Positions 1 to 20,985 of a stretch of 32,000 nucleotides of DNA are shown here, in pieces. The stretch covers positions 90,870 to 122,869 of the forward strand of contig NC_000909.1 in NCBI RefSeq assembly GCF_000091665.1. Reading direction: 5' to 3'. How positions within the stretch are numbered: position 1 is the first letter of the stretch; the number at the start of each line of letters is the position of its first letter. The notes below the pieces were generated by a model. That model was not told the DNA's origin. It saw only the letters and a list, made by a program, of their open reading frames with translations, and made no database searches. This DNA comes from Methanocaldococcus jannaschii DSM 2661. GTDB taxonomy: Archaea > AGJL01 > Methanococci > Methanococcales > Methanocaldococcaceae. Made by a program: the position numbers and the translations under genes.

Positions 1-172
1 TTAAATGAAAACTTTTTGAGTTTTTGTAGCCAGAATTGAAACTTTCTGTTTCATCAAAATTTTTATGAGCATCCCTCGTAGAAAGGGATTCCAACCTATT
101 GGACATTAATTGCCCCTGTAAGGGGCAACTTAATGGACATGTGATATCCCAATAGGAGGCATCCTCCTATGG
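1..172. repeat. GC-rich modular hairpin cassette, copy H1 (left end cut by window edge), abutting the stop codon of aIF2-beta
   Basis: Run of short stem-loops in AT-rich DNA: ATCCCT-cgtagaa-AGGGAT (71-90), GGACATTAATTG-CCCC-tgtaa-GGGG-CAACTTAATGGAC (101-138), CCCAATAGGAGG-cat-CCTCCTATGG (148-172). Bases 1-60 align with 6386-6452. Bases 101-172 share both terminal modules with 10775-10964 and 19392-19465. Confidence 0.8.
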
Positions 173-175
173 TAT

Positions 176-607
176 TTAAATCATTCTTATTGGTCTTATA
201 GCACCACAAGCCATACATTTGAGTAAATGAACTCTTCCCTCCTTAATAATCTTGGTATCTGGCTTACCGCACTCTCTACAGATAACATACTCCCTCAAGA
301 AGTCATTAATTCTTGATTTTAATAACTCTGGGCTGATTCTTCTCTGTAAGATTAATCTACCTCCCTCTAAGTTACCAGCACTACCAGTCTCTTTTAAAAG
401 ATACTTAGCAAAGAATTCCTCATCTCTATTAACTGCCTTAGCCAACTCTCTAAAGTTTCTTATTATTGTTCTATTTCCTTCTATCAAAATCTCAATTTCT
501 GGAAGTTCAAATCTATCTTTTTGGAAAACGTAATCTGGAATCTGACTTCTTGCTCTCTTTAATAATGCCTTATAATCATAATAGTCAATATTTTCAAGGT
601 CGCTCAT
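176..607 (-). CDS. eif2b: translation initiation factor aIF2 beta subunit
   Basis: 143-aa ORF with a C-terminal C4 zinc ribbon (CRECG...CMACG) and an a/eIF2-beta/eIF5-type core (FFAKYLLKETGSAGNLEGGRLILQ). Confidence 0.95.
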   Translation of the reverse strand: MSDLENIDYYDYKALLKRARSQIPDYVFQKDRFELPEIEILIEGNRTIIRNFRELAKAVNRDEEFFAKYLLKETGSAGNLEGGRLILQRRISPELLKSRINDFLREYVICRECGKPDTKIIKEGRVHLLKCMACGAIRPIRMI

Positions 608-3970: not shown

Positions 3971-4073
3971 TATAGTGTTTTTCAAATGTTTTACGGTATA
4001 AGGTATTTATAAAAGCCCTATAGGCTTTTATATAAGTGCCTTAGAAATTTTATTAAGTTTGAAAAACACTATA
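3971..4073. promoter_or_regulatory. class A inverted-repeat pair (16 bp perfect) with a central 10-bp-stem palindrome, directly upstream of the COG1900-CBS operon
   Basis: TATAGTGTTTTTCAAA (3971-3986) versus TTTGAAAAACACTATA (4058-4073). The central palindrome is TATAAAAGCC-ctata-GGCTTTTATA (4008-4032), which also contains TATA-box-like sequence on both strands. Confidence 0.65.
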
Positions 4074-4180
4074 GGTAATCCCTAAAATATATAAAAAGAG
4101 ATATAAAAATTTTAAACTTCTAAAGTATTTGATTCTATTATATCTGAGATTAAAATTGCTAAATAGAAAATAAAAAAGAA

Positions 4181-5629: not shown

Positions 5630-6184
5630 TTAAACAGTTCCCCATCTTTTAAATAAGCTATTATCTATTCCCAAAATATCTAAAACTCTTCCAACAACAA
5701 AATTAATTATATCATTTACATTTTTTGGTTTATTATAGAAAGCAGGAATTGGAGGCATTACTATAGCTCCCAAATTTGAAAGTTTTAACATATTTTCTAA
5801 ATGTATGCTATTAAATGGCATCTCTCTTGGCATAATTATCAATTTCCTTCTTTCTTTTAAAGCGATATCACAAACTCTAACTATTAAATTTGCTGAGTAT
5901 CCGTTGGCTATGGCTGATAAAGTTTTCATTGAGCAAGGCACAACTACAACAGCATCAAATTTGTTTGAACCAGATGCAAGAGGTGAGAAAAAGTCATCAT
6001 TCTCATAATAGTCCGTCGCTAATTTTTTTATTTCTTTCCAGTCAATATCAAGCTCTTCTTTAATTATTTTTTTAGCTGAATTTGAGATAATTAGATTAAC
6101 TTCAGCTCTATCTTTCAATACCTCTAACAATCTTTTTGCATAAATGACTCCACTCGCCCCGGTTATACAAACAATAATTTTCAT
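5630..6184 (-). CDS. ubiX: flavin prenyltransferase UbiX/Pad1 family
   Basis: 184 aa. MKIIVCITGASG flavoprotein N-terminus, PCSMKTL motif, and family-typical length. Confidence 0.9.
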   Translation of the reverse strand: MKIIVCITGASGVIYAKRLLEVLKDRAEVNLIISNSAKKIIKEELDIDWKEIKKLATDYYENDDFFSPLASGSNKFDAVVVVPCSMKTLSAIANGYSANLIVRVCDIALKERRKLIIMPREMPFNSIHLENMLKLSNLGAIVMPPIPAFYNKPKNVNDIINFVVGRVLDILGIDNSLFKRWGTV

Positions 6185-6294
6185 AAATTCACCATTAAAA
6201 ACTGTTAAGTTAAGATTTAAAAAATAAATACTATTTAAAAATAGTTAATCCATAAATCTAAAAAAATAAATATAACAACCTAAAATAAAATAAT

Positions 6295-6556
6295 AAAATG
6301 GTGCCGAGGGAGGGATACAAACGAAACTTTTAGAAAAAGTTAAACAAAATCTTTCAGATTTTGTAGCCCGAAGCTAACGCTTCGGTTAAATGAAAACTAA
6401 AAGAGTTTTCATAGCTGGAAAGCGTAGCTTTCCATTTCATCAAAATAGGATGCATTGCCTCGCTACGCTCGGCAATGCCTCTTAAAAGAAAGTGGGGTTG
6501 CCTCTGGCAACCCTGCTCTGAGTATCCCAATAGGGCGAAGCCCTATGGAATAAAAA
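6295..6556. repeat. hairpin cassette H2 plus a duplicated tRNA-Met 3' end (att-like)
   Basis: The 22-nt direct repeat AAAATGGTGCCGAGGGAGGGAT occurs at 6295-6316 and 6553-6574. Between them are at least 8 consecutive stem-loops, e.g. ACAAAATCT-ttc-AGATTTTGT, CCGAAGC-taac-GCTTCGG, ATGAAAACT-aaaag-AGTTTTCAT, TGGAAAGC-gta-GCTTTCCA, GCATTGCC-(11)-GGCAATGC, GGGTTGCC-tct-GGCAACCC, CCCAATAGGG-cgaa-GCCCTATGG. Confidence 0.85.
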
Positions 6557-6668
6557 TGGTGCCGAGGGAGGGATTCGAACCCTCGACCTCCCGGTTTCCC
6601 AGGACCCAGGCGTAAAGCCTGGGATATCCGTATGAGCCGGGCGCTATAACCAGCTAAGCCACCTCGGC
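6557..6668 (-). tRNA. tRNA-Met (anticodon CAU) with a ~35-nt intron 3' of position 37; CCA encoded. An Ile2-type CAU tRNA cannot be excluded.
   Basis: The reverse complement reads GCCGAGGTGGCTTAGCTGGTTATAGCGCCCGGCTCATA[intron]ACCGGGAGGTCGAGGGTTCGAATCCCTCCCTCGGCACCA. Acceptor, D, anticodon and T arms all pair. Confidence 0.9.
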
Positions 6669-6694
6669 ACGCAACATCATTATAATTACAAACC

Positions 6695-6746
6695 CATATA
6701 TATACTTTTCGGCGTAAGTTTTATATAGGGAGGTTTATAAATAAAA
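6695..6746. promoter_or_regulatory. divergent tRNA promoter region with TATA-like boxes
   Basis: On the minus strand AAAGTATATATATGGG lies ~32 nt upstream of tRNA-Met. On the plus strand GTTTTATATAGG and GTTTATAAATAAA lie 20-40 nt upstream of tRNA-Leu. Confidence 0.4.
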
Positions 6747-6759
6747 TTTGCCTTTAAGG

Positions 6760-6847
6760 GCGGGGGTCGCCAAGCCAGGTCAAAGGCGCCAGATTGAGGG
6801 TCTGGTCCCGTAGGGGTTCGCGGGTTCAAATCCCGTCCCCCGCACCA
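6760..6847 (+). tRNA. tRNA-Leu (anticodon GAG), long variable arm, CCA encoded
   Basis: GCGGGGGTCGCCAAGCCAGGTCAAAGGCGCCAGATTGAGGGTCTGGTCCCGTAGGGGTTCGCGGGTTCAAATCCCGTCCCCCGCACCA folds as a class II cloverleaf. Confidence 0.93.
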
Positions 6848-6962
6848 AATATTTGATAGCGGGTTAGAAGAGGCATTGCTTCCATTAGGAAGCAATGTAT
6901 CCTGGGTATAGCAATAGGGCGAAGCCCTATGCTTTAAACCCCATCCCCCGCACCAAATATTT
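6848..6962. repeat. hairpin cassette H3 plus a duplicated tRNA-Leu 3' end (att-like)
   Basis: The 19-nt direct repeat TCCCCCGCACCAAATATTT occurs at 6837-6855 and 6944-6962. The insert contains GCATTGCTTCC-atta-GGAAGCAATG and GCAATAGGG-cgaa-GCCCTATGC stem-loops. Confidence 0.85.
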
Positions 6963-6967
6963 TGAGC

Positions 6968-6974
6968 TTTTTTT
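6968..6974 (+). terminator. oligo-T tract after the distal tRNA-Leu repeat copy
   Basis: T7 run, the typical archaeal termination signal. It lies downstream of the cassette rather than directly after the tRNA. Confidence 0.4.
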
Positions 6975-7088
6975 AATTTGGACAATATTAGTAACTGCAA
7001 AATCTTCTTTTAGAATAATAATAACCCAATATAACAAGATTGTTTAAATTGTTTTTAATTAATGTAAATATTTGAATGTTGTGGGATT

Positions 7089-8390
7089 ATGGTGTGCTTA
7101 GATTTATCACAATACAGGATGATAACCGACGTTAAAAACAAAGATAACACATTAATCCTTGAAATAAACAAAATTTATGAGATTGAAGTTGAAATTCCTT
7201 ATGAAGAGGTTGAAATTGATGGCTCAATAATAAAAATTAATGCTCATCCAAAAAGAGCTGAAAATATAAAGGTTGGGATTTTAAACTTAATTTCTTATAG
7301 CATAGCTAACAATTTAAAGAGCAAAATAACAAAGAGAAAAACTATATATATAAATGAGCCAATTCCTCTAATAGGGCATACTGCCTTTGGTTTAATTGAA
7401 AGAGGTAGAAATATAATCCAAGTTAGAGGGCATTGTGGCTGTAATTTAAACTGCATATTTTGCTCAGTGGATGAAGGAGAGTTTTCTAAAACAAGAAAAA
7501 ATGATTACTATGTTGATTTAGAGTATTTAATTGAGAATTACAAAAAGATTGTTGATTTTAAGGAAAATAAGTTTATTGAGGCACATTTAGATGGGCAGGG
7601 AGAGCCAAGCCTTTATTATCCATTAGTTGATTTAGTTCAAGAACTGGCAGAGATAAATAAAAAAGGTAATGGTATCGTTTCCATGCAAACAAACGGGACA
7701 GTTTTAAATTATAAACTAATAGATGAGTTAGAAGAGGCCGGGTTGCATAGGATAAACTTATCTATCAATGCCTTAGATGAAAAAATGGCTAAAATGCTCT
7801 CTGGTAGGAGAGATTACAATATTAAGAAGATTTTAGATATTGCTGAATATATAAAAAACTCTAAGATTCATCTATTGATTGCTCCCCTTTTATTGCCAAA
7901 CATAAACGATGAGGAATTTAAGAGAGTTATTGAGTATGCTGTTGATTTAGAGCAGAAAAATCCTCAAAACATTATTAATCCATTAACCGGGAAAAAAGAC
8001 CCCATTTTAGGTTGCCAACTTTGTAGGGTTTATCAATTAGGTAGAAGACCTAAAAAAATGAAGGTTTGGGATTTTGAGAAGTTTTATTATTTGTTAGGGA
8101 AATATGAGTTAGAATATAAGAAGAAAGGTATAGAGGTTAAGCTCATAACTTCACCAAAGGATTTTGGAACGCATAAGAGGAAAAGATTGCCTTATCCATT
8201 CAAAGTTGGTGAGGTAACAAAAGTAAAAGTTGTTTTAGATGGAAGAGTTAAAGGAGAAGTTTTGGGAGTTGCTAAGGATAGGGTAATTCAGATAATTAAC
8301 TGCAATAATGAACAAAATCTAATAGGGAAGACAGTTAAAGTGAGAATTTTGAGAAATAAGGATAATATAATAGTTGCAGAATTGGTTTAA
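7089..8390 (+). CDS. radical SAM protein with a C-terminal TRAM-like domain (uncharacterised, COG2100-type)
   Basis: 433 aa. CNLNCIFC is a CX3CX2C radical-SAM motif. The C-terminus (FKVGEVTKVKVV...GKTVKVRILRNKDNIIVAELV) resembles TRAM beta-barrels of MiaB/RumA-type RNA enzymes. Confidence 0.8.
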   Translation: MVCLDLSQYRMITDVKNKDNTLILEINKIYEIEVEIPYEEVEIDGSIIKINAHPKRAENIKVGILNLISYSIANNLKSKITKRKTIYINEPIPLIGHTAFGLIERGRNIIQVRGHCGCNLNCIFCSVDEGEFSKTRKNDYYVDLEYLIENYKKIVDFKENKFIEAHLDGQGEPSLYYPLVDLVQELAEINKKGNGIVSMQTNGTVLNYKLIDELEEAGLHRINLSINALDEKMAKMLSGRRDYNIKKILDIAEYIKNSKIHLLIAPLLLPNINDEEFKRVIEYAVDLEQKNPQNIINPLTGKKDPILGCQLCRVYQLGRRPKKMKVWDFEKFYYLLGKYELEYKKKGIEVKLITSPKDFGTHKRKRLPYPFKVGEVTKVKVVLDGRVKGEVLGVAKDRVIQIINCNNEQNLIGKTVKVRILRNKDNIIVAELV

Positions 8391-10365
8391 AAGTGGTGAT
8401 AGCTTGAATTTAGTTGATTTATACGTAAAGAAATTCATGGATTTGATTGAGATTGAGAGAAGATGTGAGATGGATTTTCATAAAAATGAGATTATTAAAT
8501 TAGGCAAAAAGAGAGAGAATGTTGGAAGAGCAATTTTAAATTTAAAAGGGAAATTTTTAGGAGAGAGCTTAGGTTGCACCATTGTAAGATTTGGGAGAAA
8601 AAAGCCATTTAAAACAGAAATATCTCCGGGAGACGTTGTTTTAGTTAGTAAAGAAAACCCATTGCAGAGTGATTTATATGCGAATGTCATATACGTAGGA
8701 AAGAACTTTATAGATGTTGCCTTTGATGTTGATGTCCCAAAATGGGTTTATAAAGAAAGAGTAAGAGTTGATTTATACGTAAATGACATAACATTTAAAA
8801 GAATGAAAGAAGCTTTAAGAGAATTTGCAAGAAAGAGGGATAAATTAGCTTATATAATATTAGGCATTGAACACCCAGAAAAACCTTTAAGAGAGGACAT
8901 CAAATTAGAGTTCTATGATAAAAATTTAAATGAATCACAAAAATTAGCAGTTAAAAAGGCAGTTTTAAGTAGGGATTTGTATTTAATTCACGGCCCTCCA
9001 GGAACTGGAAAGACAAGAACTATAACAGAGGTTATCGTCCAAGAGGTTAAATTTAACAAACATAAGGTTTTAGCTACAGCAGATTCAAACATAGCAGCAG
9101 ATAACATCTTAGAGTACCTAATAAAAAAATATCCAGATTTAAAAGTTGTTAGGGTAGGGCATCCAACAAGGATTTCAAAGGATTTGATTCAACACTCTCT
9201 CCCCTATCTAATTGAAAATCATGAGAAATATCAAGAAATCCTAGCTTTAAGAGAGAAGATTAAAGAAATTAAAGAACAGAGGGATAAATTTTTAAAGCCC
9301 TCCCCAAGATGGAGGAGAGGAATGAGTGATGAGCAGATTTTAAAAGTAGCTAAAAGAAAGAAATCCTACAGAGGGATTCCTAAGGAAAAAATCGTTAGTA
9401 TGGCAGAATGGATTATAAGAAATAAAAAGATTAAAAGAATCATCAATAATTTGGATGAAATTACTGAAAAAATCATGAATGAGATTTTAGCAGAGGCAGA
9501 TGTTATCGTAGCAACAAACTCTATGGCTGGTTCAGAAATTTTGAAAGGCTGGGAGTTTGATGTGATTGTTATTGATGAAGGAAGCCAAGCAATGGAGCCT
9601 TCTTGCTTAATTCCAATTGTTAAAGGAAGAAAGCTAATCATGGCTGGAGACCATAAGCAATTACCACCAACAGTTTTAAGTGAGAATGAAGAGCTAAAAA
9701 AGACTTTATTTGAGAGATTGATTAAAAAATATCCAGAATTTTCATCAATATTGGAGATTCAGTATAGAATGAACGAAAAAATCATGGAATTCCCAAATAA
9801 GATGTTTTATAACAACAAATTAAAGGCAGATGAGAGCGTTAAAAACATCACTTTATTAGATTTAGTTAAAGAGGAGGAGATTGATGAGGTTGATAGAGAT
9901 ATTATAAACGAAATCCCAGTTCAATTTATAAATGTTGAAGGGATTGAAAGGAAAGATAAAGAATCTCCATCTTATTACAACATAGAAGAGGCGGAGAAGG
10001 TTTTAGAGATAGTTAAAAAACTTGTAAAGTATAAGATACCAACAAACGTTATAACTCCTTACGATGCCCAAGTTAGGTATTTGAGGAGGTTGTTTGAAGA
10101 GCATAACATAGACATAGAGGTTAATACAGTAGATGGATTCCAAGGAAGGGAGAATGAGGCTATAGTTATCTCATTCGTTAGAACAAAGAACTTTGGATTT
10201 TTGAAGGATTTGAGGAGGTTGAATGTTGCCATAACAAGAGCTAAGAGAAAGCTAATTTTGATAGGCAATGAAAATCTATTGAAGCAAGATAAAGTCTATA
10301 ATGAAATGATAAAGTGGGCAAAATCTGTTGAAGAAGAACACAAAAATAAAATTATCCAAAAATAA
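8374..10365 (+). CDS. superfamily 1B helicase, Upf1/DNA2/NAM7-like
   Basis: 663 aa with GPPGTGKT (motif I), VIVIDEGSQ (II), QYRM, VDGFQGRE (V) and NVAITRAK (VI). It overlaps the upstream radical-SAM gene by 17 nt. Alternative starts are possible at 8404 (TTG after GGTGAT) or 8437. Confidence 0.85.
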   Translation: MQNWFKSGDSLNLVDLYVKKFMDLIEIERRCEMDFHKNEIIKLGKKRENVGRAILNLKGKFLGESLGCTIVRFGRKKPFKTEISPGDVVLVSKENPLQSDLYANVIYVGKNFIDVAFDVDVPKWVYKERVRVDLYVNDITFKRMKEALREFARKRDKLAYIILGIEHPEKPLREDIKLEFYDKNLNESQKLAVKKAVLSRDLYLIHGPPGTGKTRTITEVIVQEVKFNKHKVLATADSNIAADNILEYLIKKYPDLKVVRVGHPTRISKDLIQHSLPYLIENHEKYQEILALREKIKEIKEQRDKFLKPSPRWRRGMSDEQILKVAKRKKSYRGIPKEKIVSMAEWIIRNKKIKRIINNLDEITEKIMNEILAEADVIVATNSMAGSEILKGWEFDVIVIDEGSQAMEPSCLIPIVKGRKLIMAGDHKQLPPTVLSENEELKKTLFERLIKKYPEFSSILEIQYRMNEKIMEFPNKMFYNNKLKADESVKNITLLDLVKEEEIDEVDRDIINEIPVQFINVEGIERKDKESPSYYNIEEAEKVLEIVKKLVKYKIPTNVITPYDAQVRYLRRLFEEHNIDIEVNTVDGFQGRENEAIVISFVRTKNFGFLKDLRRLNVAITRAKRKLILIGNENLLKQDKVYNEMIKWAKSVEEEHKNKIIQK

Positions 10366-10711: not shown

Positions 10712-10774
10712 AATACCACCAAAATACCAATTCGAAAGTTTTAGCATATTCAAACAATATAAAATCTTCAGATT

Positions 10775-10964
10775 GGACATTAATTGGGACTGAAAGTCCC
10801 AACTTAATGGACGTGTGGTATCCACACCATAAAGGGGCTACGCCCCTCTTGGGATACTCCCCTAATATTGCTAATTTACACCTCCGAGCATAAGCGAGGA
10901 GGTGTTAGGTTTTGATGAACCTTTTACTAAAAGGTTCATACCAATAGGAGGTTTCCTCCTATGG
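10775..10964. repeat. hairpin cassette H4 (longest full copy), abutting the stop codon of the PAC2-like gene
   Basis: Modules: GGACATTAATTG-GGAC-tgaaa-GTCC-CAACTTAATGGAC (10775-10812), GTGTGG-tat-CCACAC, AGGGGC-tac-GCCCCT, ACACCTCC-(12)-GGAGGTGT, ATGAACCTTTT-act-AAAAGGTTCAT, CCAATAGGAGG-ttt-CCTCCTATGG (10941-10964). Confidence 0.85.
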
Positions 10965-10967
10965 TAG

Positions 10968-11863: not shown

Positions 11864-13429
11864 ATGAAAATTCTAATAATCACTGGAAAATTAGCTGAAA
11901 GGAAAGTTAAAGATGCTGTGAAAAAATATGATTTTATAGATGTGCATGTAGCAAATATCTCTGTAGCTGCTTTTTTAACACCTAATTTAATAATTAAAGA
12001 AATTAAAAAATTAGAAAACAAATTAGGAAAAAAATTAAAAGATATTTATGATTTTGTTTTAGTAACTGGGTTGATAAGACATGATTTAAAGAATGTTGAG
12101 GAAGAAACCGGAATAAAATGCTTTAAATCTACAAGAGAAGCTTCTGATATTCCAATATTGATTGAAAATCTGGATAAGATAAAACTATCAACTAAAGAGT
12201 ATGCCGATTTGCAGTTATTAGAAATTATTAGAAAGAAATGTGAGGAGGAGATTAAGAAAGCAGAGGAGCAGGAATTAGGAGAAGGAGATATAAAGATAGG
12301 CAAATTAAAAGTTGGAGATAAATTCCCAATGAGAGTTTTGGGAGAGATAGTCCATGCCCCATGGCTAAAAGAGAAAGAGTTGGAGGAGAAAATAATATAT
12401 TACTTAGAAAGTGGGGCTGATATGATTGATTTGGGAATGGTTAGCAATGAAAATAATGCAGATAAAATTAAAGATATGCTAAAGATAGCGAGAGATTTAA
12501 CTGACAATCCAATTAGTGTAGATACATTAAACACAAAAGAATTAATTGAGGCAATAAATTTAGGGGCAGATATGATTTTGAGTGTTGATGCTGGGAATTT
12601 AGATGAGCTAATTCCATATTTAAAAGATTCAGAAACGGCAGTTGTTGTTCTGCCAACAAATTATAAAACAAACTATGTCCCAGAGACTATTGAAGGCAAA
12701 ATTAAATCCTTAGAGGAGAATATAAAAAAGCTAATAGATGCTGGAATTGAAAAAATAGTTGCTGACCCAATATTAGAGCCAATAAACAATGCCGGATGCA
12801 GTTTTATAGAGAGCGTTATTGCATGTAGAGAATTTAAAAAAAGAAATAAATTGCCACTATTTTTTGGTGTTGGAAATGTTACAGAGCTTTTTGATGCTGA
12901 TAGTAATGGAGTCAATGCTTTGTTAGCAGCTATTGGGGCTGAGATTGGAGCTAATATATTATTTACACCAGAGGCAAGTGCTAAGTGTAAATTTTCAATA
13001 AAAGAGTTAAAGATTGCCTCAAAGATGATGTTTTTGGCTAAAAAAAGGAACTCTCTGCCAAAGGATATTGGCTACAATTTGATAAATTATAAGGATAAAA
13101 GATTTGAGGAGGAAATAACCTTCAATAGTTACAATATCCCAATAATTAAAGCTGAAGAAGATGAGAGGCAGATATTGGATGAAGGAAGTTTTAAAATAGA
13201 AATTGATAGGAAGAACAAAGAGATAGTAGCAATATACTTTAATAAAAGAAGAGAACCAGTTTTAATAATTAGAGGAAAGAAACCAAAAGAAATTTATGAA
13301 ACCGCGATAAGATTAAATTTAATAAAAAAGTTAGACCATGCATCTTATTTTGGTAGAGAGTTAGCTAAGGCAGAGATTGCTTTAAGGATAGGTAAAAAAT
13401 ACAATCAGGACTTTGATTTGTTCCTATAA
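11864..13429 (+). CDS. dihydropteroate synthase-like pterin-binding protein (pterin/methanopterin metabolism)
   Basis: The central region has DHPS-type TIM-barrel signatures (GADMIDLG, VDTLN, GADMILSV, GVGNVTELFDADS). The ORF-track start is TTG at 11852; ATG at 11864 follows GAGGGAG. Confidence 0.7.
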   Translation: MKILIITGKLAERKVKDAVKKYDFIDVHVANISVAAFLTPNLIIKEIKKLENKLGKKLKDIYDFVLVTGLIRHDLKNVEEETGIKCFKSTREASDIPILIENLDKIKLSTKEYADLQLLEIIRKKCEEEIKKAEEQELGEGDIKIGKLKVGDKFPMRVLGEIVHAPWLKEKELEEKIIYYLESGADMIDLGMVSNENNADKIKDMLKIARDLTDNPISVDTLNTKELIEAINLGADMILSVDAGNLDELIPYLKDSETAVVVLPTNYKTNYVPETIEGKIKSLEENIKKLIDAGIEKIVADPILEPINNAGCSFIESVIACREFKKRNKLPLFFGVGNVTELFDADSNGVNALLAAIGAEIGANILFTPEASAKCKFSIKELKIASKMMFLAKKRNSLPKDIGYNLINYKDKRFEEEITFNSYNIPIIKAEEDERQILDEGSFKIEIDRKNKEIVAIYFNKRREPVLIIRGKKPKEIYETAIRLNLIKKLDHASYFGRELAKAEIALRIGKKYNQDFDLFL

Positions 13430-14791: not shown

Positions 14792-15550
14792 TTATAAGAG
14801 GTCTAAAATTATATCTAACATTTCTTTGCTATTTGCTACAATAATATTCAATCTATCTGTTGCATTTAGGTCAAATTTCAGTTCATCTCCATTTTCATCT
14901 GTTATTAAGGCTCCTGCTTCTTTGCAGATTATATATGATGAGGCAATATCAACAGCTCTAACCTTAGGTCTTACATCAAAAACAGCATCTAAAGTCCCTT
15001 TAGCTACATAACACATTTCTAAACCAAAAGCTCCAAATATTCTCACTCTTTTAACTTTGTTCCTTAATTTTTCTAAATCTATTTTTTTGCTTGGATAGTA
15101 GCTTATAACTATATTATTTGGATTGAAGTCTTTAACTTTAATCTTTCTTCCGTTTAAATAAGCTCCTTTTCCTTTATATGCCTCATAAAAACTTTTAGTT
15201 AAAAATTCGTAGGTTAAGCCATAATATGGCTCATTATTTTTAAATACTCCAAAGCAGAATGCAAAAAATGGAATTCCATTTATAAAATTAAAAGAACCAT
15301 CTATTGGGTCAATAACTACAGTCCATTCGCTACTGTTATCTATAACACCCAACTCTTCACTCACGATATTAACATTCAGCGATTTTAAATATTTTAAGGC
15401 AATATCTTCACTAATTTTGTCAAAAATTTCTGTTTCATCTCCGCTTGGAGAAGTTCCAACAACGTAAGATTTATCTTTTCTTCCAAAATATGGTAAAATT
15501 TCTTTTTCAATCTCTTTTGCAATATTTTTCCCAATTTCATCCCATTTCAT
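14792..15550 (-). CDS. suhB: bifunctional inositol-1-monophosphatase / fructose-1,6-bisphosphatase (IMPase family)
   Basis: 252 aa with WTVVIDPIDGSFNF (DPIDG motif). The sequence matches what I recall of the structurally characterised M. jannaschii enzyme. Confidence 0.93.
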   Translation of the reverse strand: MKWDEIGKNIAKEIEKEILPYFGRKDKSYVVGTSPSGDETEIFDKISEDIALKYLKSLNVNIVSEELGVIDNSSEWTVVIDPIDGSFNFINGIPFFAFCFGVFKNNEPYYGLTYEFLTKSFYEAYKGKGAYLNGRKIKVKDFNPNNIVISYYPSKKIDLEKLRNKVKRVRIFGAFGLEMCYVAKGTLDAVFDVRPKVRAVDIASSYIICKEAGALITDENGDELKFDLNATDRLNIIVANSKEMLDIILDLL

Positions 15551-15610
15551 TTTCTCATCCTATGCTTTATTTTTAAATTTAAATATACAAAATAAGATAA
15601 TAGTCAATAT

Positions 15611-15661
15611 CTAAGATTTCTTCATCTCTTCCTTTATTTTAAGATAGGTTATCGGTATCGC
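15611..15661 (-). pseudogene. relic duplicate of the last ~15 codons plus stop of the adjacent SemiSWEET-like gene
   Basis: The minus strand translates ..IPITYLKIKEEMKKS*, against IPITYLKIRDEMRKS* for the intact gene end (15742-15792). The match is ~78% nt identity, gap-free and codon-phased, and all three aa changes are conservative. Confidence 0.7.
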
Positions 15662-15741
15662 AAGCATATAGAGGAACCTCTATTACTATACTCCGAGTGG
15701 GCTTTACTATGTTCAGCCCCACTTTCTATATTTAGCTTTCA
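15662..15741. repeat. hairpin cassette H5 between the SemiSWEET-like gene end and its relic copy
   Basis: ATAGAGG-aa-CCTCTAT and AGTGGGC-(13)-GCCCCACT stem-loops form a GC-rich island in AT-rich spacer. Confidence 0.65.
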
Positions 15742-16011
15742 TTAAGATTTTCTCATCTCATCTCTTATTTTCAAATAAGTTATCGGTATCCAAAACATTA
15801 AAGACAAAATGTTAAATACTATTATTGGGTAATCATTTCTTAATATTCCATATATTAACCAGAGTGTCAGTCCAGTTGTGAATGTTATAACAAAAGCTAA
15901 TGAGATGTTGCTCATATCTTTCTCCTTCAAAGACTTTATTAATTGGGGGAGAGATGCAAAGGTTGTTAAAGTTCCAGCAATATAGCCGATAACAGTTATA
16001 TCAAAGTCCAT
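15742..16011 (-). CDS. SemiSWEET / PQ-loop (MtN3-like) small membrane protein, 3 TM helices
   Basis: 89 aa from ATG 16011 (GGTGAT SD; the ORF-track GTG is at 16023). The motif is LTTFASLPQLIKSLKEKDMSNISL...LWLIYG...N. Confidence 0.8.
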   Translation of the reverse strand: MDFDITVIGYIAGTLTTFASLPQLIKSLKEKDMSNISLAFVITFTTGLTLWLIYGILRNDYPIIVFNILSLMFWIPITYLKIRDEMRKS

Positions 16012-16088
16012 ATTAATCACCACAAATGTTATAAATTTTAAAAGAGTTTGTTAAAATTTACCAACTTATATAGGTATAGGTGGGATAA

Positions 16089-17382: not shown

Positions 17383-17483
17383 ATTTTTATTCCATATTGG
17401 TCTGATTTTAATGAAATGTTTATTCTTGGAGAGCCACACATTATTTGTGATGAGTTTCCATTCCGAATCGGTCTGATTTTAAT
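17383..17483 (-). CRISPR. CRISPR mini-array 2: 2 repeats (one degenerate), 1 spacer, with full leader
   Basis: 17454-17483 is GTTTCCATTCCGAATCGGTCTGATTTTAAT. 17383-17412 is ATTTTTATTCCATATTGGTCTGATTTTAAT (6 mismatches). The spacer is 41 nt (17413-17453). Confidence 0.8.
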
Positions 17484-19288: not shown

Positions 19289-19391
19289 TCTATCACCTTT
19301 AGATTAATAATTACAATTATATTACAATTTTATGCCTTTGCCACAATCTAATCGTAGTTGTTGGTGTTTATCTTACGTATTTAACTAAGCT

Positions 19392-19465
19392 TGGACATTA
19401 ATTGGGGCTGATAGCCCCAACTTAATGGACGGGAGGTATCCCAATAGGAGGTCTCCTCCTATGGG
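19392..19465. repeat. hairpin cassette H6 (minimal two-module copy) between cdhD and cdhE, overlapping the cdhD stop codon
   Basis: GGACATTAATTG-GGGC-tgata-GCCC-CAACTTAATGGAC (19392-19429) and CCCCAATAGGAGG-tct-CCTCCTATGGG (19438-19465). Confidence 0.85.
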
Positions 19466-20646
19466 CTGACAATCCACTCATAGTTGTTTGTGTTTAGTTT
19501 AACCTCTCCTGGCTTGGTTGTTAGAGTTTTTCCAATCTCTTTCAGTGTTTTAACTGATATTGGATTGAGCATCATGAATAAATCTACTCCACACATCATC
19601 ATCGTAATTCCAGTAGTTATTTCCCATAATGGTAATCTATACTCTCTTGGCCCCCATTCAGGATTGTTCATCCATGCCTCTCTTGCTCCAATAGCGTTTG
19701 TTGTTCCAGATGACATTGGCATATTAACCAACTCATCTCCCTTCAATCCATTTAATCTTAATCTAACCATTGCGTTGATTGAGAACTCAATCCCATAACC
19801 TAAAGCACATGTTGTTGGATCCATAACTATTCTATTTGGGTCCAAACCAGCTTCAACAAGTTTTCTATTTAAATCTCTCGCCATATTTGGGTCCATAATA
19901 CTCCATGCTAATACGTTGTGGTCATATTTCATAGCTGCATCAACTATCTTTTTATAATCCAACTCCAAGTTTGCTGAAGCTAATAAGCATCTATCTCCTT
20001 CTGCTACTTCAGCACATGCTTCCAAAACTAAAGGGTCTTTTTGAGGATTTCCACTACCTCCAATAACAAATGGAACATCAACTGCCTGTAATAAATCTTC
20101 CATTAATTTTGCAGCTTCTTTTGGACTTTTATCTTTAATTTTTGGGTCTGTGGAGATGTGGTGAATTGTTATCATATCTGCCCCAAATTCTTTAACACAC
20201 TTCTTTGCCCATTCGCAAGGGTCTTCCATAACATCCTGGAAAAACTGCCTAATTGGTTTTGGTAATCCTGGCATTGGTATATCGAATATATCGAAAGTAA
20301 CAACTGGTGGATTTGGCTGTGGTTCTTCAAATCTATATAAAGCTCTCTGTCCCCCAATTTTCACAACTTTTCCTCTTCCTCCTTCTGATTTTGGTTTTCC
20401 AAATTGGACTTCTCTTATATATCCAGGATATTTTTCAACTGGTGGTTCCCAATCTAACTCTGGGACATCTTTAATTTCTATAATTCCTTCTTCAGCCAAT
20501 TTTTCTTTTATTGATGGTGTTTGAGGAATAACTATTGGAGGGGCTGATGGGATATTTATAATTAATTCATCTGCGGTGATTTTTATATCCTCAATCTCAA
20601 TTCTACCAACTTTTTCAATGATTTTTATCAAAGTATTTAAATCCAT
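19459..20646 (-). CDS. cdhD: acetyl-CoA decarbonylase/synthase delta subunit (corrinoid/Fe-S protein small subunit)
   Basis: Family-typical sequence throughout. The ORF-track start at 20676 is possible, but ATG at 20646 follows a strong GGTGAGG SD. Confidence 0.92.
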   Translation of the reverse strand: MDLNTLIKIIEKVGRIEIEDIKITADELIINIPSAPPIVIPQTPSIKEKLAEEGIIEIKDVPELDWEPPVEKYPGYIREVQFGKPKSEGGRGKVVKIGGQRALYRFEEPQPNPPVVTFDIFDIPMPGLPKPIRQFFQDVMEDPCEWAKKCVKEFGADMITIHHISTDPKIKDKSPKEAAKLMEDLLQAVDVPFVIGGSGNPQKDPLVLEACAEVAEGDRCLLASANLELDYKKIVDAAMKYDHNVLAWSIMDPNMARDLNRKLVEAGLDPNRIVMDPTTCALGYGIEFSINAMVRLRLNGLKGDELVNMPMSSGTTNAIGAREAWMNNPEWGPREYRLPLWEITTGITMMMCGVDLFMMLNPISVKTLKEIGKTLTTKPGEVKLNTNNYEWIVSP

Positions 20647-20843
20647 AACCTCACCCAATCTGTCATTATAAATCATTATAGATTAAGATTAAGTTATTAC
20701 CAAACTTCATATATAAACGTTATTATTTCAATTTTTTAAAGGAAAATTTCTAAAAAATAAAAAATATTTTATTTTATCTTAAATTGACAAACAGTATTCG
20801 TTATTAGATATTTTAATAGCTATATTACATTTTGTATGAAAAA

Positions 20844-20896: not shown

Positions 20897-20985
20897 GGCG
20901 CGGGGTACCGGGCTTGGTAGCCCGGGGCGGACTTCAGATCCGTCGAGGGCGAGAGCCCTCGGGGTTCGATTCCCCCCCTGCGCCG
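20897..20985 (+). tRNA. tRNA-Sec (anticodon UCA), 9/4 acceptor/T-stem architecture, CCA not encoded
   Basis: GGCGCGGGG/CCCTGCGCC is a 9-bp acceptor stem. The D-stem CCGGGC/GCCCGG is long, the anticodon loop is CTTCAGA, the extra arm is GAGGGC-gaga-GCCCTC, and the T-stem is 4 bp (GGGG-TTCGATT-CCCC) with discriminator G. Confidence 0.9.

Follow-up and report, generated by a model that had tools for sequence, protein, structure and literature searches.

Why do two neighboring tRNA genes of Methanocaldococcus jannaschii DSM 2661 each carry a second, partial copy of their own 3′ end a short distance downstream, with nothing but hairpins in between? The genes, tRNA-Met and tRNA-Leu, are divergently transcribed and lie in a stretch of 32,000 nucleotides (NCBI RefSeq assembly GCF_000091665.1, contig NC_000909.1, positions 90,870 to 122,869 of the forward strand), which we call the window and in which coordinates are given unless another locus is named. 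An initial annotation of this sequence had proposed two answers, namely, that the repeats are deletion scars of integrated elements or that a non-autonomous hairpin element is mobilized in trans into gene 3′ ends. The evidence assembled here supports the second answer and extends it well beyond tRNA genes: the att-like repeats are in all likelihood target-site duplications of dispersed, modular GC-rich hairpin elements that inserted at the ends of tRNA-Met and tRNA-Leu and whose family duplicates approximately 20 to 90 bp of target sequence. The tRNA-Met locus is composed as follows.

6557..6668, minus strand: intron-containing tRNA-Met(CAU) gene with encoded CCA (Rfam tRNA match at 6560-6668, 60.6 bits; anticodon CAT read off the sequence)
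6553..6580, no strand: proximal (functional) duplication copy, comprising the last 24 nt of tRNA-Met and 4 nt of flank (single copy in the empty-site genomes L007, L003, and L009)
6323..6552, no strand: composite hairpin cassette of 230 nt (absent in L007, L003, and L009)
6295..6322, no strand: distal, decaying duplication copy of 28 nt with 2 mismatches (repeat alignment)

The intron of approximately 36 nt directly follows the anticodon CAT, as read from the sequence, and because of it the gene was miscalled by ARAGORN. As initially annotated, a perfect 22-nt direct repeat (AAAATGGTGCCGAGGGAGGGAT) occupies positions 6295-6316 and 6553-6574, with 236 nt between the two cores; the chance expectation for such a repeat was 0.00 in 100 shuffles. 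With mismatches allowed, the repeat extends to 28 nt at 93% identity (6295-6322 and 6553-6580). The tRNA-Leu locus is built in the same order of parts, listed here with the module names Y, X, Z, W, and V, which are labels coined in this analysis.

6760..6847, plus strand: tRNA-Leu(GAG) gene (ARAGORN, Rfam)
6825..6854, no strand: proximal duplication copy, comprising the last 23 nt of tRNA-Leu and 7 nt of flank (repeat alignment)
6855..6932, plus strand: X-Y two-hairpin element of 78 nt, with the canonical X-Y unit at 6868-6932 (absent in L007 and L009, present in L001)
6933..6962, no strand: distal duplication copy of 30 nt with 3 mismatches, followed by the native flank TGAGCT and a T7 run at 6968-6974

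The perfect 19-nt repeat reported here (TCCCCCGCACCAAATATTT) is real, and its second copy does lie at 6944-6962, while the first copy was placed one base off and is found at 6836-6854; its chance expectation was again 0.00 in 100 shuffles. The perfect cores are separated by 89 nt. An imperfect similarity reaching into the T arm, which had also been described, was recovered as a 30-nt repeat at 90% identity (6825-6854 and 6933-6962), the two copies being 78 nt apart. This extension into the T arm is what would be expected if the distal copies were the last traces of decayed, full-length tRNA duplicates arranged in tandem. We give that explanation next to no credence. It fails because the similarity reaches no farther than 28-30 nt and stops precisely at the boundary of the element; the sequence preceding the distal 3′ end is a hairpin element that is found at many other loci, and neither ARAGORN nor Rfam detected a second tRNA.

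Both cassettes consist of back-to-back GC-rich hairpins, in agreement with the initial annotation, and are far more stably folded than their shuffled counterparts, with z values of -6.9 (Met cassette) and -6.2 (Leu cassette). They share a 37-nt module that is 84% identical, GTAT(C/A)(C/G)CAATAGGGCGAAGCCCTATG. A hairpin scan of the window revealed related clusters at 1-175, 10775-10965, 15668-15742, and 19391-19464, and alignment identified modules common to the Met cassette and the element at the start of the window; the cassettes also have modules in common with about 100 copies in vent metagenome contigs. The modules are defined as follows.

Module Y: GGTATMCCAATAGG-stem-loop-CCTATGG
Module X: TAAGAGGCAYTGCC...GGCARTGCATCC
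Module Z: AATTTACACCTCC...GGAGGTGT
Module W: AAAGTGGGGC...GCCCCAC
Module V: TTGGACATTAATTG-hairpin-CAACTTAATGGAC

Modules can occur in both orientations inside a single cassette: the Met cassette contains a W′-Y two-hairpin unit at 6489-6548 in plus orientation and an X module at 6448-6484 in minus orientation, with more hairpins to the left of X. The right end of the element is fixed and is formed by hairpin Y, which terminates in CCTATGG, and the right duplication copy begins 0-6 nt later. The left ends of the modules are likewise defined and usually abut a target TAA (TAA/GAGGCAYTGCC, TAAA/GTGGGGC, and TAA/TTTACACCTCC, with the slash marking the junction). Terminal inverted repeats were not found, as the left ends (TAAGAGGC..., GTGGGGC..., or TTTACACC...) are not inverted copies of the right end (...CCCTATGG). 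The hairpins have a conserved foot, CCAATAG...CTATGG, that of hairpin Y being AATAG and not GTAG, and pairing is retained in both X-Y hairpins through compensatory changes. The tips of hairpins X, Z, and W (e.g., 6448-6484 of the window; L062 and L090) share the motif GA-R-C-GNA-G-Y-GA, consisting of tandem G.A pairs, a covarying R-Y pair, and a GNA triloop, and a GCGAAGC mini-hairpin is frequent in hairpin Y. A search of positions 6200-7050 against Rfam at a permissive threshold gave no family for the cassettes, the two tRNAs being the sole matches. The Y-type hairpins are unevenly distributed, with six in the 32-kb window versus none in the 22 kb fetched from L007.

Insert-free alleles in related genomes, which the initial annotation had suggested looking for, exist for both tRNA genes. 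Syntenic Methanocaldococcus loci were collected by a protein-anchored scan of species genomes and compared by a four-way alignment and direct reading. The Met cassette is absent, and the tRNA-Met 3′ end is present as a single copy, in L007 (sp. 16A), L003 (sp. 28A), and L009. L007 and L009 also lack the Leu cassette; in both, the repeat is again single copy and the native flank TTGAGCTATTTTT directly follows tRNA-Leu; in the window, this flank comes after the distal Leu copy instead. The distal copy thus continues into native downstream sequence. L001 carries the Leu cassette, and its distal copy is more decayed. In view of the empty sites, the cassettes are lineage-specific insertions, and they are members of a dispersed repeat family rather than remnants of unique integrated elements. 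Allele polymorphism within M. jannaschii was not found: the window sequence 6100-7150 (1,051 bases compared) is 100% identical to assembly GCA_013329685.1, and 8 of 8 contigs with an identical flavoprotein agree with the window at 100% of the positions that they cover, L163 alone spanning the cassettes and the other seven being shorter. At the tRNA-Leu repeat, both copies read CCAAATATTT in the window (6825-6962) and CCAGATATTT in L001 (8400-8540).

To see how general the repeat-element-repeat layout is, we turned to metagenomes. A pattern scan for module Y returned at least 120 stretches, mostly on contigs of 28-35% GC from vent metagenomes, and inspection by eye indicated that long direct repeats of host sequence flank most copies. 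For quantification, the 450 nt to the left of Y were locally aligned with the 150 nt to the right (score of at least 18, right copy starting at most 8 nt from CCTATGG), and a right flank shifted by 400 nt served as the control. Flanking direct repeats were detected for 64 of the 97 non-redundant element copies versus 2 of the 76 shifted controls. The recurring "repeats" AAATCAGACCGTTTCGGTATGGAAAT and AAATCAGACCTCTTGGAGG are element modules and were left out of the duplication counts, as was L072, a tandem-repeat artifact. After redundant loci and recurrent modules had been dropped, 40 distinct target sites were left. The repeats measure 20-89 nt (median, 43.5) and the inserts 29-257 nt (median, 78), with no open reading frame (ORF). 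For the most part, the targets are the final 20-70 nt of protein genes, stop codon included; the left junction usually lies at a TAA that abuts the element, and the right copy directly follows CCTATGG. Two more tRNAs with the same structure were found in L116 and L145. Long, variable duplications are therefore a general property of the hairpin family. Six repeat pairs are at least 95% identical and the corresponding insertions are thus recent; near-perfect duplications include those of L064 (64/65), L061 (26/26), and L120 (51/52). At the right junctions of these three loci, we noticed a 1-nt insertion approximately 3-5 nt into the copy that abuts CCTATGG, even in recent duplications, which may be a mechanistic scar. 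Consistent microhomology at the right junction was not found beyond about 1-3 nt.

These data bear directly on the first of the two answers, according to which the repeats are the attL/attR footprint of integrases at tRNA 3′ ends and the inserts are integrative elements later deleted to hairpin remnants. The direct repeats do include tRNA 3′ ends, the classic integrase target, and two adjacent tRNAs are affected. However, the same layout occurs at a minimum of 36 non-tRNA sites, many of them protein-gene ends, with repeats of very different lengths (20-89 nt); the inserts belong to one dispersed repeat family and comprise 78 and 230 nt of hairpins without an integrase remnant. The search for an attP- or integrase-bearing element by means of the repeat cores was also negative in the collections used, both of which are limited: among IMG/VR viral contigs, the 18-nt cores of both repeats gave only chance matches to two unrelated high-GC phage tRNA arrays or nothing, and among PLSDB plasmids, the repeat regions gave noise (chance matches to Klebsiella plasmids) or nothing. 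Owing to the many unrelated targets, the variable repeat lengths, and the lack of an attP-bearing element in these searches, the integrase explanation fails, and we regard it as highly improbable. An involvement of Cas1 or a casposase was considered as well, on the basis of the first four duplications (28-35 nt), which resembled a 30-nt CRISPR repeat, and was dropped when the larger sample displayed a continuous spread of 20-89 nt. This spread excludes a fixed molecular ruler (Cas1, casposase, or IS1202-like).

If the repeats are target-site duplications, insertion into a protein gene should leave the ancestral gene end behind the distal copy. We made this prediction for cdhD, whose 3′ end is arranged as follows.

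19343..19375, no strand: distal copy of the cdhD 3′ end, running into the ancestral C-terminus ...IVAKA-stop at 19330-19342, just outside
19376..19468, plus strand: insert with a V-Y hairpin element at 19391-19464 (site empty in L171)
19469..19501, no strand: proximal copy, forming the present 3′ end of cdhD (19459..20676, minus strand; repeat alignment)

The V-Y element is bracketed by a 33-nt repeat (82% identity) of the cdhD 3′ end, and the distal copy was indeed found to continue into the ancestral gene end, encoding ...NTNNYD-stop-IVAKA-stop. The closest cdhD orthologue, P0001, ends in ...NTNNYDWIVAKA (...NNYDWIVAKA); its locus, L171, carries no insert, and the spacer and neighboring gene downstream of it are the ones that follow the distal copy in the window. 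The cdhD gene of the window now ends in ...EWIVSP-stop, with its TAG stop codon (19459-19461) inside hairpin Y. The hairpin insertion has thus replaced the ancestral C-terminus ...WIVAKA with ...WIVSP (19459-19475), a concrete example of how a mobile element can rewrite the end of a protein. A further protein-gene end in the window carries the same structure.

15612..15798, no strand: 56-nt direct repeat of 80% identity (15612-15667 and 15743-15798) around a Y′-W element (15668-15742), at the 3′ end of an ORF at 15742..16023 on the minus strand

A third, partial copy of this repeat is present at 15549-15578, and the sequence 15560-15757 of the window is missing from L007. A 5′ end can also be affected: in L001, an X-Y element lies between two copies of a 50-nt stretch that contains the ribosome-binding site and the first codons of a gene, and this site is empty in the window, L003, and L007.

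A plausible sequence of events would start with an element that is mobilized in trans by a putative enzyme. The duplication would arise from two strand breaks or strand transfers whose spacing is wide and variable, or alternatively from a priming event behind the growing strand, in either case followed by gap filling. Where the breakpoints straddle the end of a tRNA gene or ORF, one complete gene end would be left and the other copy would decay; insertions elsewhere in genes, of which none are seen, would be lethal. Because the duplication is so long, a gene that is hit within its final tens of bases has an intact end restored by the insertion, so that survivors accumulate at the termini of tRNA and protein genes.

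Several observations weigh against this interpretation. Approximately 25 elements are in sense orientation relative to the gene whose end is duplicated versus 1-3 in antisense, a strong bias for which insertion and tolerance alone do not account; it hints that the elements influence RNA 3′ ends. Approximately one copy in three has no recognizable duplication, perhaps on account of age or perhaps because the target is not duplicated at every insertion. Repeat-element-repeat-element arrays occur at some loci (L120) and require extra events such as unequal crossing-over or repeated insertion. The window and L001 each share one lineage-specific base between both tRNA-Leu repeat copies, which requires that the copies underwent gene conversion or that insertions hit this site independently. 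Finally, no transposase, terminal inverted repeats, or autonomous copy was detected in approximately 0.5-0.9 Mb of Methanocaldococcus-like sequence: a pattern search of 524 kb yielded no X left end with a distant Y end and an ORF between them, and clustering of all ORFs of at least 150 amino acids from 928 kb yielded no multicopy gene, only syntenic orthologues. One candidate for an autonomous element, in L062, was rejected, as the 1.8 kb between its two inverted Y modules contain nothing but ordinary genes of the ferredoxin type and genes of unknown kind.

Two of the metagenome loci record rearrangements of their own. In L120 (7013-7853), a repeat-element-repeat-element-repeat-element array with three different elements lies downstream of a ferredoxin-type gene. 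Repeat copies 1 and 3 are 51/52 identical, a sign of a hot spot that either was hit repeatedly or underwent unequal crossing-over. The same gene in L090 carries a single insertion. L096 and L122, both on contig Ga0256843_1000173, carry composite elements at different targets that are approximately 99% identical over approximately 190 nt. The identity starts in the loop of the first hairpin and creates chimeric, non-pairing hairpins, so that the copies seem to have recombined or undergone gene conversion at this conserved loop.

Such exchange between copies, with its breakpoint in a conserved loop, is also compatible with a process that dispenses with a dedicated transposase, in which a nascent strand switches template during replication or repair, copies a hairpin element elsewhere in the polyploid genome, and rejoins upstream of its point of departure. 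Template switching would suit the variable duplication length of 20-89 nt, the lack of a transposase or terminal inverted repeats in the 524-928 kb searched, and the small indels at the CCTATGG junction even in recent events. Its predictions conflict with element ends that are sharp and identical at dozens of sites, the right end always being CCTATGG and the left ends of the modules being constant, and with a right junction that lacks consistent microhomology of more than 2-3 nt. In addition, copy number differs strongly among close relatives, as between the window and L007, in the manner of an active mobile element. We therefore consider template switching unlikely, though the least unlikely of the alternatives to target-site duplication by an inserting element.

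Another route to variable duplications leads through RNA and depends on whether the cassettes are transcribed. Archaeal RNA polymerase terminates at oligo-T tracts. On the strand of tRNA-Met, TTTTT (6556-6552) directly follows the CCA, and because of this position the Met cassette probably lies outside the tRNA-Met transcript. The tRNA-Leu gene has just T3 after its CCA, and the first strong oligo-T is the T7 run at 6968-6974, located as initially annotated, past the cassette and the distal copy; this would probably make the Leu cassette a transcribed, structured 3′ trailer of tRNA-Leu. The earlier proposal that the cassettes are cotranscribed with their tRNAs is hence plausible for tRNA-Leu and unlikely for tRNA-Met. 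In a target-primed, SINE-like (short interspersed element) mode of mobility, cassettes transcribed as 3′ trailers would be copied into nicked targets, with a variable position of the second-strand nick. Variable duplication length is typical of target-primed reverse transcription, as in LINE (long interspersed element) and SINE elements, and the fixed 3′ end, the strong sense bias downstream of genes, and the position of the Leu cassette between the tRNA and the first strong oligo-T run are in line with such a route. It is difficult to reconcile with left (5′) ends that are constant and not randomly truncated, with the absence of a 3′ tail, with modules in both orientations within the Met cassette, and with the T5 tract after tRNA-Met, which would end transcription before the Met cassette. 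No reverse transcriptase turned up in the sequence fetched, a weak test, as no search was aimed at this enzyme. The sharply defined element ends thus count against both template switching and the RNA-mediated route, the latter of which we judge to be distinctly improbable.

Insertion with target-site duplication is accordingly the explanation that we prefer for the repeats. There is a substantial chance that the underlying mechanism is new. The more far-reaching proposal, which we put forward tentatively and would not yet bet on, is an undescribed mode of DNA mobility in Methanocaldococcus, in which tiny hairpin cassettes without ORFs or terminal inverted repeats would insert with variable duplications of 20-90 bp by an enzyme or a replication-coupled process unlike the known mechanisms of miniature inverted-repeat transposable elements (MITEs), repetitive extragenic palindromic (REP) elements, integrases, and casposons; rewritten gene termini, such as new C-termini (as in cdhD), decoy start sites, and tRNA 3′ trailers, would be its by-product. 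Dozens of clean junctions together with empty sites make the insertion mechanism testable. On the preferred explanation, a long-known, unexplained repeat family of a model hyperthermophile is an active mobile element that leaves long, variable duplications as its unusual signature and that reshapes genes by replacing C-termini, duplicating start regions, and adding structured 3′ trailers to tRNAs and mRNAs. For the mapping of archaeal proviruses and islands by att repeats, it matters that partial tRNA duplications are no marker of integrated elements here.

Two further members of the hairpin family are present in the window.

1..175, plus strand: composite hairpin element, cut by the window start and immediately adjacent to the eIF-2-beta stop codon (gene at 176..607, minus strand), with modules shared with the Met cassette
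10725..10967, plus strand: composite hairpin element (V ... Y) between the stop of a PAC2-family gene and the start of a DUF473 gene (site empty in L007, with a 13-nt spacer)

The second of these has no recognizable duplication left, and L001-L004 carry other module combinations. Insertions of other kinds were seen in the same syntenic loci. L003 contains a classical AT-rich MITE (8484-8566 and 13182-13290) that is bounded by the terminal inverted repeats TAGTTGTGTGTAAAA ... TTTTGCACACAACTA and has a TA duplication; one of its copies lies exactly at the tRNA-Leu 3′ flank, the position of the cassette in the window, and the MITE is absent from the window, L001, and L007. An element of approximately 100 bp with terminal inverted repeats (TATAGTGTTTTTCAAA ... 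TTTGAAAAACACTATAG) is located between two minus-strand genes at 3977-4085 of the window; L001 and L007 lack this element, and L003 has a shorter version. Between the divergent tRNA-Met and tRNA-Leu promoters, L001 carries a 96-nt insert (8199-8294) that contains internal hairpins and has a terminal inverted repeat of 11 nt (GGGCTTTATGC / GCGTAAAGCCC), and the 3′ end of its helicase gene is extended in frame by 158 nt of A-rich, low-complexity sequence (11958-12115); both the insert and the extension are absent from the window, L003, and L007. The window additionally contains isolated CRISPR repeats or mini-arrays at 1430-1662 and 17454-17483 (Rfam CRISPR-DR13 and DR39), with leader-like sequence kept in L001, and tRNA-Sec at 20897-20985.

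Among known systems, the hairpin family itself is very likely one already on record; the long variable duplications, the rule that gene ends are regenerated, and the empty-site evidence are apparently undescribed in the literature searched, which did not include Suyama et al. 2005. It is probably identical with the MJRE palindromic elements of M. jannaschii, a putative assignment that rests on comparison by description (same organism group; small, palindromic, non-coding, multicopy elements). In the papers citing the original report, MJRE1-3 are described as small, palindromic, non-coding, multicopy, and mostly extragenic elements that at times extend into coding sequence (Suyama et al. 2005, cited in PMC2229807 and PMC2996958). 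The same literature search gave no description of long variable duplications of Methanocaldococcus repeats. Likewise, the abstract of the 2005 report by Suyama, Lathe, and Bork (FEBS Lett 579:5281) reportedly does not mention long flanking target duplications. MITE-like elements of Pyrobaculum C/D-box sRNAs (PMC6009581) were considered as a match and set aside as a different phenomenon.

Tandem copies of a tRNA 3′ end around an insert are what the hairpin family has in common with tRNA-targeting integrases and casposons. Integrase repeats, however, derive from attP homology and are specific to one element and one tRNA, whereas the hairpin family hits any gene end. Casposons reportedly have fixed duplications of approximately 14-15 bp and terminal inverted repeats, and in CRISPR integration the duplication has the length of the repeat; the duplications of the hairpin family, in contrast, vary more than fourfold in length. 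Classical MITEs (e.g., Correia and the Sulfolobus SM elements; PMC2229807) are similarly small, non-autonomous, multicopy elements with presence/absence polymorphism between relatives but are bounded by terminal inverted repeats and make short duplications of fixed length (2-10 bp), in contrast to the 20-89 nt and the lack of terminal inverted repeats observed here; the true MITEs with TA duplications that adjoin hairpin elements in L003 and the window look quite different. With the REP/BIME/REPIN elements of bacteria, the family shares short, GC-rich, imperfect palindromes downstream of genes, which are combined into mosaics in either orientation, as well as compensatory upkeep of the hairpins and lineage-specific abundance. 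REP/BIME/REPIN elements are mobilized by RAYT Y1 transposases. REPs lack target duplications and carry a GTAG/CGTC tag, whereas the family in the window has duplications of 20-89 bp, with long flanking repeats at 64 of 97 copies, and the foot CCAATAG...CTATGG. To our knowledge, IS1634 and IS1549 are the only documented prokaryotic elements with long insertion repeats of variable length, and they are the closest precedent for the duplications described here, a property that the hairpin family shares. These insertion sequences measure 1.5-2 kb and possess a DDE transposase and terminal inverted repeats, in contrast to hairpin elements of 54-257 nt with neither ORF nor terminal inverted repeats, and no IS1634-type transposase was found near the hairpin elements. 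On insertion, IS1634 and IS1549 generate direct repeats of 8-514 bp, for which there is no mechanistic model, and the IS1634 family has been called "remarkably diverse in archaea" (PMC2266710).

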